A model generated the notes under the pieces. The model ran no database searches and was not told where the DNA came from. It saw nothing but the letters and a program-made list of their open reading frames with translations. Below are positions 5,704 to 16,040 of a stretch of 64,000 nt of DNA, piece by piece (position 1 is the first letter of the stretch; the number at the start of each line of letters is the position of its first letter). The stretch comes from Faecousia sp. (GTDB lineage: Bacteria; Bacillota; Clostridia; Oscillospirales; Oscillospiraceae): contig JAZOLS010000029.1 of assembly GCA_045653245.1 (NCBI GenBank), forward strand, positions 2,190 through 66,189, in the 5' to 3' direction. The translations under genes and the position numbers were made by a program.

Positions 5704-5735
5704 AACGCCCTGCAAAAGCAGGGCGTTCTTTGTTT
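5704..5735 (+). terminator. Intrinsic terminator
   Basis: AACGCCCTGC-AAAA-GCAGGGCGTT then CTTTGTTT. Confidence 0.75.
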
Positions 5736-5760
5736 AAACATCAAGATTATGCACATACTA
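5732..5760 (+). promoter_or_regulatory. Putative sigG/sigF forespore promoter of spoVAD
   Basis: GTTTA-17-CATACTA; spoVA is sigG-dependent in Bacillus and clostridia. Confidence 0.6.
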
Positions 5761-5785: not shown

Positions 5786-6805
5786 ATGGCGCAAAATAAG
5801 CGCGGCAAGCAGAGTTTTGTATTGCCTCAGATGCCAGTAATCACCACTTGGGCAAGCATCGCCGGTAAAAAAGAAGGCGAAGGACCACTGGCATCAACCT
5901 TTGATGTGGTATCCCAGGATACCTATTTCGGGCAAAAAACCTGGGAGCAAGCAGAAAAACAAATGCAAAAAATGGCCATGGATAAAGTCATGGAGAAGGC
6001 AGGGCTCTCCGCAAATCAAGTGGGATTGGTATTTTCCGGGGACTTGCTGAACCAGTGCATTGGCTCTTCCTTTACTCTTCGCAATACCGGCATTCCGCAT
6101 TTGGGATTGTACGGGGCTTGCTCAACCATGGCAGAAAGCCTTTTGGCGGCTTCCATGGCCGTCAGCGGCGGTTTTGCGGACAGGGTGATCGCGTTGACGT
6201 CCTCGCATTTTGCTTCCTCTGAACGGCAGTACCGCTTCCCTCTCGGCTATGGCGGACAGCGCACACCCACAGCCCAATGGACAGTCACCGGCTCCGGTGC
6301 GGCACTGGTATGTTCCGCAGGCATCGGTCCGCGCATTGAGAGTTGTACTGTGGGTACTGTCACTGATCTCGGAATCAAGGATGCCAACAATATGGGTGCC
6401 GCTATGGCACCTGCCGCTTACGCAACCATCAAAGCCCACCTGGAAGATATGAAACGTGCGCCGGAAGATTTTGATTTGATCGTCACTGGCGATCTTGGAC
6501 AATTGGGCAAAGAAATACTGATGGAGTTAGCCCGTCGGGATGGTATCTACCTTGGTGGCCGCATCGCAGACTGCGGTACTATGGTATTTGATACCACTAC
6601 CCAGGATGTCCACTCCGGCGGTTCGGGATGCGGATGCAGTGCCATTACGCTTTGTGGTGAACTGCTGGGCAAACTGCAAAAAGGAAAACTGAAAAACATT
6701 CTATTCTGCGGCACAGGTGCTTTGCTCTCTCCCACATCCACCCAGCAAGGTTTGCCCATTCCCGGCGTGTGCCATGCCGTTTCCATTATGGGAGGTAACA
6801 ACTGA
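5786..6805 (+). CDS. spoVAD: Stage V sporulation protein AD
   Basis: GKKEGEGPL, GDLLNQC, GLYGACSTMAES, SERQYRFPLGYGGQR, GGSGCGCSA. Confidence 0.95.
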   Translation: MAQNKRGKQSFVLPQMPVITTWASIAGKKEGEGPLASTFDVVSQDTYFGQKTWEQAEKQMQKMAMDKVMEKAGLSANQVGLVFSGDLLNQCIGSSFTLRNTGIPHLGLYGACSTMAESLLAASMAVSGGFADRVIALTSSHFASSERQYRFPLGYGGQRTPTAQWTVTGSGAALVCSAGIGPRIESCTVGTVTDLGIKDANNMGAAMAPAAYATIKAHLEDMKRAPEDFDLIVTGDLGQLGKEILMELARRDGIYLGGRIADCGTMVFDTTTQDVHSGGSGCGCSAITLCGELLGKLQKGKLKNILFCGTGALLSPTSTQQGLPIPGVCHAVSIMGGNN

Positions 6806-6806
6806 T

Positions 6807-7163
6807 ATGGACTATGTAAAAGCATTTTTGGTTGGCGGTGCATTTTGTCTGATCGGACAGATCCTCATCGACAAAACGAAACTTACCCCTGCACGAATTT
6901 TAGTCAGTTACGTGGTTTGCGGCGTAATTTTGACAGCCCTTGGCATTTATAAACCATTGGTGGATTTTGCAGGCGCGGGCGCAACCGTCCCCTTGACAGG
7001 ATTCGGTTACTGTCTTGCCAACGGAGTCAAAGAGGCTGTGGACAGCGATGGATTGCTCGGTGTGTTTACAGGCGGACTGAAATCTACAGCAGGTGGAATC
7101 ACCGCCGCTATCGTCAGCGGTCTTGTTGTCAGTCTGATCTTTAAAGCAAAGGATAAATCCTGA
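6807..7163 (+). CDS. spoVAE: Stage V sporulation protein AE (SpoVAEb type)
   Basis: KAFLVGGAFCLIGQILIDKTKLTPARILV, FAGAGATVPLTGFG; start 6807. Confidence 0.92.
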   Translation: MDYVKAFLVGGAFCLIGQILIDKTKLTPARILVSYVVCGVILTALGIYKPLVDFAGAGATVPLTGFGYCLANGVKEAVDSDGLLGVFTGGLKSTAGGITAAIVSGLVVSLIFKAKDKS

Positions 7164-7179
7164 ATTTTGGGGCATATTA
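7151..7179 (+). promoter_or_regulatory. Putative sigG/sigF promoter of the Q/N-rich small ORF
   Basis: GGATA-17-CATATTA (GGGCATATTA -10). Confidence 0.6.
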
Positions 7180-7225
7180 ATCTTGCGGCACGTCCGCAGT
7201 ACAGATAAACTTGGAGGAAATAGTT

Positions 7226-7348
7226 ATGAATAACAAGCAGAATCAGCAGAACAATCAGAACCAGAACAGCCAGAATAACAACCAGCAGAACAACCAGAAC
7301 AACCAGAGCAATCAGAACCGCAATCAGCAGAATCAGAACAACCGCTAA
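7226..7348 (+). CDS. 40-aa Gln/Asn-rich microprotein MNNKQNQQNNQNQNSQNNNQQNNQNNQSNQNRNQQNQNNR
   Basis: Strong RBS GGAGG 8 nt before ATG, in-frame CAG/AAC/AAT codons, TAA, then terminator; below the ORF-track length cutoff. Confidence 0.8.
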   Translation: MNNKQNQQNNQNQNSQNNNQQNNQNNQSNQNRNQQNQNNR

Positions 7349-7354
7349 AGAAAC

Positions 7355-7385
7355 AATGGCCTGTTGCAAAAAGCAACAGGCCATT
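7355..7385. terminator. Bidirectional terminator between Q/N ORF and addA
   Basis: AATGGCCTGTTGC-AAAAA-GCAACAGGCCATT, perfect 13-bp stem. Confidence 0.8.
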
Positions 7386-15836: not shown

Positions 15837-16040
15837 ATGGATACCATTGCATTGATCCTTTCTATCATCGGCAGCCTGAACTGGGGCCTGGTGGGTATTT
15901 TCCAGTTTGACCTGGTGGCATGGCTGTTCGGCGGCCAGGATGCTGTTCTCAGCCGGATCGTCTATGCCCTGGTGGGCCTGGCCGGTCTTTGGTGCATTTC
16001 CCTGCTGTTCCGCAAGGGCCAGCACGCGGACATGGATTAA
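15837..16040 (+). CDS. DUF378 (YuzA-like) small membrane protein
   Basis: IIGSLNWGLVGIFQFDLVAWLFG; RBS GGAGG; sigF-like GTATA-14-GGGAACGATA upstream (15772..15800). Confidence 0.88.
   Translation: MDTIALILSIIGSLNWGLVGIFQFDLVAWLFGGQDAVLSRIVYALVGLAGLWCISLLFRKGQHADMD

Follow-up and report, generated by a model that had tools for sequence, protein, structure and literature searches.

Gamma-type SASPs have been hypothesised to act as a reservoir of amino acids for outgrowth and, according to passages of PMC8452069 and PMC10730256, have not been found in clostridia; portions of PMC3533761 and PMC8452069 state more broadly that clostridia have no SASP of this type. The alpha/beta SASPs of Clostridioides difficile are described in part of PMC3789822 as being under sigma-G control, and Table S7 of that study lists GerG under sigma-E promoters. 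In line with the reported absence, which the initial annotation of the DNA studied here had noted for SspE, the SspE profile PF04259 matched none of 120 genomes of the class (with a positive B. subtilis control); phylum-wide, it matched 2 of 151 genomes. The Q/N-rich prion domains of yeast combine a very high Asn/Gln content with low complexity and no stable fold.

The window, a 64,000-nucleotide stretch of Faecousia sp. DNA, harbors on its plus strand a 40-residue ORF (7226..7348) made of 20 Asn, 14 Gln, 2 Ser, 2 Arg, one Lys and one Met. The encoded microprotein is thus 85% Asn plus Gln, carries a net charge of +3 and is devoid of hydrophobic residues past the initial Met; in the 1.64-Mb genome, this ORF is the sole Met-started one of 20-150 residues to exceed 40% Asn plus Gln. 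It begins after a 62-nt gap from the end of spoVAE (6807..7163, plus strand; TIGR02839 above cut-off), which follows spoVAD (5786..6805, plus strand; PF07451 and TIGR02845, both above cut-off). The putative forespore-type promoter of the small gene (sigma-F/sigma-G; 7151..7179, plus strand), delineated with a motif from unlinked copies and matching entries of Table S6 in PMC3789822, is composed of a -35 box at 7151-7155, a 17-nt spacer with a run of G at its end, and a -10 box at 7173-7179. A short, GC-rich and likely stabilising hairpin, recognised by comparing its folding with that of shuffled sequences, lies where the mRNA is predicted to begin (7184..7198, plus strand), and a Shine-Dalgarno site (7213..7217, plus strand), found in 18 of 18 genus units, has the start codon 8 nt on. 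Past the stop codon, a perfect 13-bp inverted repeat (7355..7385) likely acts as a two-way terminator common to the small gene and to the next gene, which is convergent and encodes an AddA-like helicase/nuclease.

The ORF composition, the 17-nt-spaced promoter boxes and the ribosome site were exactly as the initial annotation had them. Its self-contained unit behind spoVAE stands as a small gene with a ribosome site, a hairpin and a probable forespore-type promoter of its own, with the correction that the final codons of spoVAE contain the -35 box. As a 13-bp repeat, the terminator is perfect, as that annotation had stated; the terminator scan called it on the minus strand alone, the plus-strand U-tract being weak. 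A further forespore-type promoter was assigned to spoVAD-spoVAE (5732..5760, plus strand; -35 at 5732-5736, 17 nt, -10 at 5754-5760), ranking 38 of 3413 starts in the genome with the motif from unlinked copies. In the interval from spoVAE to the ORF, the terminator scan detected no strong site, and the spoVAD-spoVAE promoter may also read through into the microprotein gene. The spoVAD-spoVAE pair (5786..7163) was without an adjoining spoVAC, a spoVAC-like paralogue being located on another contig of the same genome.

The microprotein gene is almost certainly real. Eighteen same-genus genomes were drawn. spoVAE was assembled in 17 of them and was followed every time by the unit, made up of a forespore-type promoter, a 5′ hairpin, a ribosome site, an Asn/Gln ORF and a terminator hairpin; 0 of 12 genomes from other families had it at that place. 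Three extra same-genus genomes all had it (3/3), and the reading frame and ribosome site, on whose conservation the initial annotation had staked its proposal, were kept in 20 of the 20 loci with an assembled spoVAE. Among named spoVAE loci, the unit was present in 45 of 80, including 23 of the 24 titled Faecousia; the miss has just 235 nt of downstream sequence. Although the same-genus loci were located by synteny, an Asn/Gln frame opened in them at the start codon that follows the ribosome site. The peptides of 61 distinct units were 25-56 residues long, and in 61/61 cases the terminator hairpin (median, -24 kcal/mol) began 0-9 nt past the stop codon. The stem of the 5′ hairpin began a median of 4 nt past the -10 box, and per-sequence folding returned a median z of -2.4 relative to mononucleotide shuffles, with 48 of 61 units below -1. 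Covariation on alignment A2, gappy in that stretch and read in an offset bracket register, did not support this hairpin, as 340 of 500 shuffles scored at least as high, and the per-sequence folding is what speaks for it.

Within coding sequence, the DNA alignment had gaps only in multiples of three. The window ORF contains tandem periods of 9-42 nt and uses mixed Asn codons (13 AAC, 7 AAT), as the initial annotation had noted, together with CAG for all 14 Gln residues, to which its remark on mixed codons does not extend. Its opposition of protein-level selection to slippage turned out to be a false choice: repeats are gained and lost in frame, and these length changes, together with the kept frame and composition, indicate that slippage acts on length and that selection preserves frame and composition. 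Codon preferences (AAC 0.70, CAG 0.94) were close to those of the most biased genes of the genome (AAC/CAG of 0.65/0.85 in the top reference set versus 0.36/0.57 in the bottom set), bearing in mind that repeats inflate these counts and that kin are not independent.

The gene has largely escaped databases. As the initial annotation had anticipated of gene callers, the protein collection entry for this contig is the hydrophobic 125-residue ORF on the opposite strand (7007..7384, minus strand), a cluster with one member from one contig, and 9 of 9 sense peptides looked up in that collection were absent. This antisense ORF is spurious and not conserved: in 43 of 63 related units, a stop codon interrupts its frame in the leader or promoter, and only 18 of the 63 have a Met in the 70-nt zone where it would start. 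A search of 5.8 billion proteins returned two unnamed family proteins, so gene callers sometimes do call the family, and the ESM Atlas yielded just clusters of hypothetical proteins of 33-37 residues, of low value for recognition. When used as a protein query against 30 relatives, the peptide had no match (0/30) even though 17 of them have the gene, because low complexity defeats the search. It matched no Pfam or NCBIfam family at E≤1; likewise, 0 of 28 family members matched NCBIfam and 0 of 10 further members matched Pfam.

Loci were collected at three taxonomic levels. At the family level, a pattern carrying no promoter information matched 31 of 251 genomes; the 30 loci fetched comprised 12 other small Asn/Gln genes, the window's own and 17 unrelated sequences, and 11 of the 12 were unlinked to spoVAE. 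When a sequence model of the unit was then applied to the order, 23 of its top 29 other loci, spread over 11 families and one of them a training member, had a small Asn/Gln gene, four had long membrane proteins and two had nothing; in the class, such genes occurred at 23 of 29 loci, adding 12 families. Since this model contains the promoter, promoter scores in the order and class sets are partly circular. In all, independent promoters, ribosome sites and terminators accompanied the gene at unrelated loci in 23 families. The four long membrane proteins, with Asn/Gln-rich starts, were devoid of the promoter, with motif scores of -1.4 to -4.6. Membrane proteins of 119-166 residues with long Asn/Gln/Pro/Tyr-rich N-termini and devoid of a forespore promoter were seen at five loci (L103, L107, L120, L126 and L225). 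The family is patchy rather than universal among sporulators, as no copy was detected in five sigG-bearing genomes searched in depth. Because these five controls were negative, the lack of a copy in four asporogenous genomes devoid of sigG and spoIVA proves nothing. sigG was found in 128 of 141 order genomes; the three carriers or candidates without a sigG match all had spoIVA, and the genome of the window retains both genes.

The promoter motif was learnt from the 11 copies unlinked to spoVAE, which had been found without promoter information, and consists of two boxes 17-18 nt apart. The window site scored 8.6 bits, compared to 6.9 bits for the 95th percentile of 500 control upstream regions; 11 of 18 genus units exceeded this percentile and 17 of 18 had a 17-nt spacing. 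By eye, the motif resembles the sigma-F as well as the sigma-G promoters of C. difficile mapped in Table S6 of PMC3789822, a passage of which describes a G preceding the -10 box as a mark of sigma-F; the G-run before the -10 box is conserved in Faecousia units. The promoter of the small gene is thus likely of the forespore type proposed initially, sigma-F and sigma-G not being separable from the motif. At three loci where the -35 box within spoVAE was changed or displaced (L053, L093 and L094), a new -35-like pentamer was found 17 nt before the -10 box. The second-best match of the unit model in the window's genome was the region upstream of an alpha/beta SASP gene (E 6e-4; G000:C32:20923-21023), whose -10 box and 5′ hairpin are of the kind seen at the small gene; ahead of the alpha/beta SASP gene of several relatives, the 5′ hairpin is longer. 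Only 3 of 26 alpha/beta SASP upstream regions exceeded the 95th percentile of the promoter model, two sspE upstream regions scored 5.7-6.1, and the genome-wide top list also includes housekeeping genes. Other high-ranking starts were those of a DUF378 gene of the window (15837..16040, plus strand; rank 18 of 3413), a candidate member of the forespore regulon, and of two Cys-rich small proteins elsewhere in the genome (G000:C52:22346-22624, plus strand, rank 1; C18:14585-14749, minus strand, rank 12). In one public RNA run, summed contig depth reached 955 over the ORF core compared to 0-22 in the other 29 bins; we give this depth almost no weight as evidence of expression, for 105 of 110 contigs were less than 95% alike, the leader was uncovered, and the run pools many organisms and repeats and cannot rank expression.

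When pooled, 95 distinct peptides were 47% Asn, 30% Gln, 6% Lys, 5.5% Ser and 5% Arg, with nearly no hydrophobic residues. They contain 1.98 nitrogen atoms per residue, compared to 1.34 in long ORFs and 1.33 in two SspE proteins. Sequence and length drift freely across the family while composition is retained. AlphaFold proposed no fold (pLDDT 59, pTM 0.15) and the peptide is predicted to be disordered. With fewer than 100 residues and a basic, hydrophilic character, it falls within the size and charge range of gamma-type SASPs, and acid solubility is predicted; as it has no signal peptide, a forespore-made product would remain in the core. The Gln share rose with the G+C content of the locus (rho 0.41; kin are not independent). 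The C-terminal residue was Arg in 65 of 95 peptides, often preceded by Cys, Ser or Asn.

The genus further appears to differ in its SASP-degrading machinery. None of 19 genus genomes had a detectable gpr gene (PF03418), in contrast to 11 of 12 from other families; yyaC went undetected in all 5 genus genomes searched for it. At the alpha/beta SASP position which visual alignment places at the EIA site, described in part of PMC8452069 as the target of GPR cleavage, Gln was present in 16 of 16 genus loci (L062, L072-L084, L086 and L088) and Glu in 13 of 13 others. SASP breakdown in the genus may thus use another route than GPR and, with gpr found in none of the 19 genomes, GPR cleavage of the microprotein in the genus is unlikely.

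Our preferred reading, to which we assign a probability of about one half, is that the microprotein is a disordered, basic spore-core peptide serving as a depot of amide nitrogen and amino acids, expressed through forespore sigma-F and/or sigma-G. Either or both sigma factors would read the promoter in the forespore, where the hairpin-capped and hairpin-terminated mRNA would support strong expression. The Asn/Gln peptide would accumulate in the spore core and its breakdown after germination, proceeding in Faecousia without GPR, would free Gln and Asn, both of which feed nucleotide and amino-sugar synthesis. This is the job proposed for gamma-type SASPs in Bacillus, here without membership in their family. 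A composition held constant while the sequence drifts is what a depot predicts. With so one-sided a make-up, the peptide could not serve as a reserve of amino acids in general and could store only nitrogen, Asn and Gln. A Glu with Ile, Leu, Phe, Met or Val as the next residue occurs in none of the 95 peptides; for want of such a step, and with neither gpr nor yyaC detected, no degrading enzyme can be named for the depot. The C-terminal Arg is not explained by storage.

That the forespore-made peptide would rather act physically, as a polar-zipper amyloid, gel, glass or hydrophilin-like filler guarding the dehydrated core, appears unlikely to us. A median Asn plus Gln content of 78%, an uninterrupted Asn/Gln run whose median length is 12 residues and, in Faecousia, the lack of a known SASP protease, which fits a product uncut by GPR, are consistent with such a role, as is the gelling in vitro of the Asn-rich repeats of C. 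difficile GerG reported in part of PMC5241399. Some syntenic orthologues are nonetheless poor candidates, 16 of 95 peptides having less than 60% Asn plus Gln (lowest, 26%) and 7 of 95 being charged at 25% or more of their residues; moreover, 12 of 118 are without a run of six, no aromatic residue is conserved in the family, and GerG itself does not need its repeats to function according to the same portion of PMC5241399.

The remaining explanations rank lower than both the depot and the gel or amyloid. Weak binding to nucleic acid or ribosomes through spaced Lys/Arg and the Arg at the C-terminus, in a secondary role beside alpha/beta SASPs, would agree with the positive net charge of 115 of 118 peptides (none is negative), the frequent terminal Arg and the kind of upstream region common to the small gene and the SASP gene; with a charge as low as +3 in 40 residues (median), no fold and no conserved interior motif, and given that SspE, basic too, is reported in part of PMC6279783 not to bind spore DNA, we consider this improbable. 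We find it just as improbable that the RNA is what matters, the peptide being incidental to an abundant hairpin-capped spore mRNA that stores nucleotides or acts as a sink for ribosomes. The conserved 5′ hairpin and strong 3′ hairpin would suit it, and dormant B. subtilis spores retain abundant small-SASP transcripts according to part of 10.1101/682872, but ribosome site, start codon and Asn/Gln frame are retained everywhere, coding gaps are multiples of three, changes are confined to hydrophilic residues, and no Rfam family reached threshold in the microprotein region. Least probable of all is a gene unrelated to spores, a functionless microsatellite or a regulatory leader: tandem periodicity, patchiness among sporulators and the overlap of the -35 box with coding DNA in the genus speak for such a reading, against which stands the gene's occurrence in 23 families, at unrelated loci, with a promoter, ribosome site and terminator of its own. 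An attenuator leader peptide was rejected, the next gene being convergent, with no co-oriented gene downstream, and no Rfam leader reaching threshold.

Returning to the depot, the family described here is a real and undescribed one of small spore-type proteins; no description of it was found in the open literature, subscription papers and small-protein catalogues, which may list it, lying outside the scope of that search. For the way in which clostridial spores lay up amino acids and nitrogen for outgrowth, this family provides a concrete candidate in abundant gut commensals, and a portion of PMC12056005 documents a cultured type strain of the genus. The locus also exposes a blind spot, in that databases carry the hydrophobic antisense ORF and profile searches overlook even syntenic orthologues, and, as gpr and yyaC seem to have been lost from a genus that sporulates, another route of SASP breakdown is suggested.

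Of the known systems, SspE (PF04259) from Bacillales bears the closest comparison. Like the microprotein, it is small, hydrophilic, slightly basic (+2 and +3 in two proteins, versus +3) and Gln/Asn-containing, and its gene has a forespore-type promoter and a terminator of its own. In contrast to the 40 residues and 85% Asn plus Gln of the microprotein, SspE has 93 residues and 20-22% Asn plus Gln, and the Ala, Gly, Val and Tyr of SspE are missing from the microprotein. An acidic-Phe core, which we take to be the GPR cut site, occurs twice in both SspE proteins and is absent from the window peptide and from all 95 pooled peptides. Membership in the SspE family was rejected on account of this missing duplicated core and of the lack of a PF04259 match, which a real SspE gives at 107 bits. 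At four other loci (L227:389-568, L239:1395-1568, L250:1564-1731 and L264), Asn/Gln/Lys-rich small genes under the same type of promoter encode a single acidic-Phe core similar to that of SspE. All four genomes have gpr, and the last three represent 3 of 3 genomes of one family. The L227 protein was not significantly similar to SspE by BLAST (E 0.88), and searches with the core-bearing members returned no matches, with family-level follow-ups covering three genomes each; their kinship with SspE is an unproven lead. A wider scheme, which we hold to be doubtful, is that Clostridia have a class-wide counterpart of gamma-type SASPs which its size and composition conceal from gene callers and homology searches. 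It would be a near-pure Asn/Gln nitrogen depot, possibly remotely related to SspE, in which a lone protease-site-like core survives in certain gpr-bearing lineages and only amide residues are left elsewhere, including Faecousia, where GPR would have been lost and the cut site of alpha/beta SASPs altered, the product perhaps being packed as a reversible amyloid or gel.

Alpha/beta SASPs (PF00269) resemble the microprotein in the promoter and 5′ hairpin of their gene in the window's genome; identity with them was rejected because of the lack of a PF00269 match, of a helical DNA-binding core and of a GPR site, and the genome has a separate alpha/beta SASP gene elsewhere. Unlike yeast prion domains, the microprotein has no attached domain and no aromatic spacers, and some of its orthologues are charged or low in Asn/Gln. 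GerG (CD0311), as described in part of PMC5241399, is likewise clostridial, with gel-forming Asn-rich repeats in variable number; it is much larger and about 30% Asn, with Met and Pro, whereas the microprotein consists of its repeat and nothing else.
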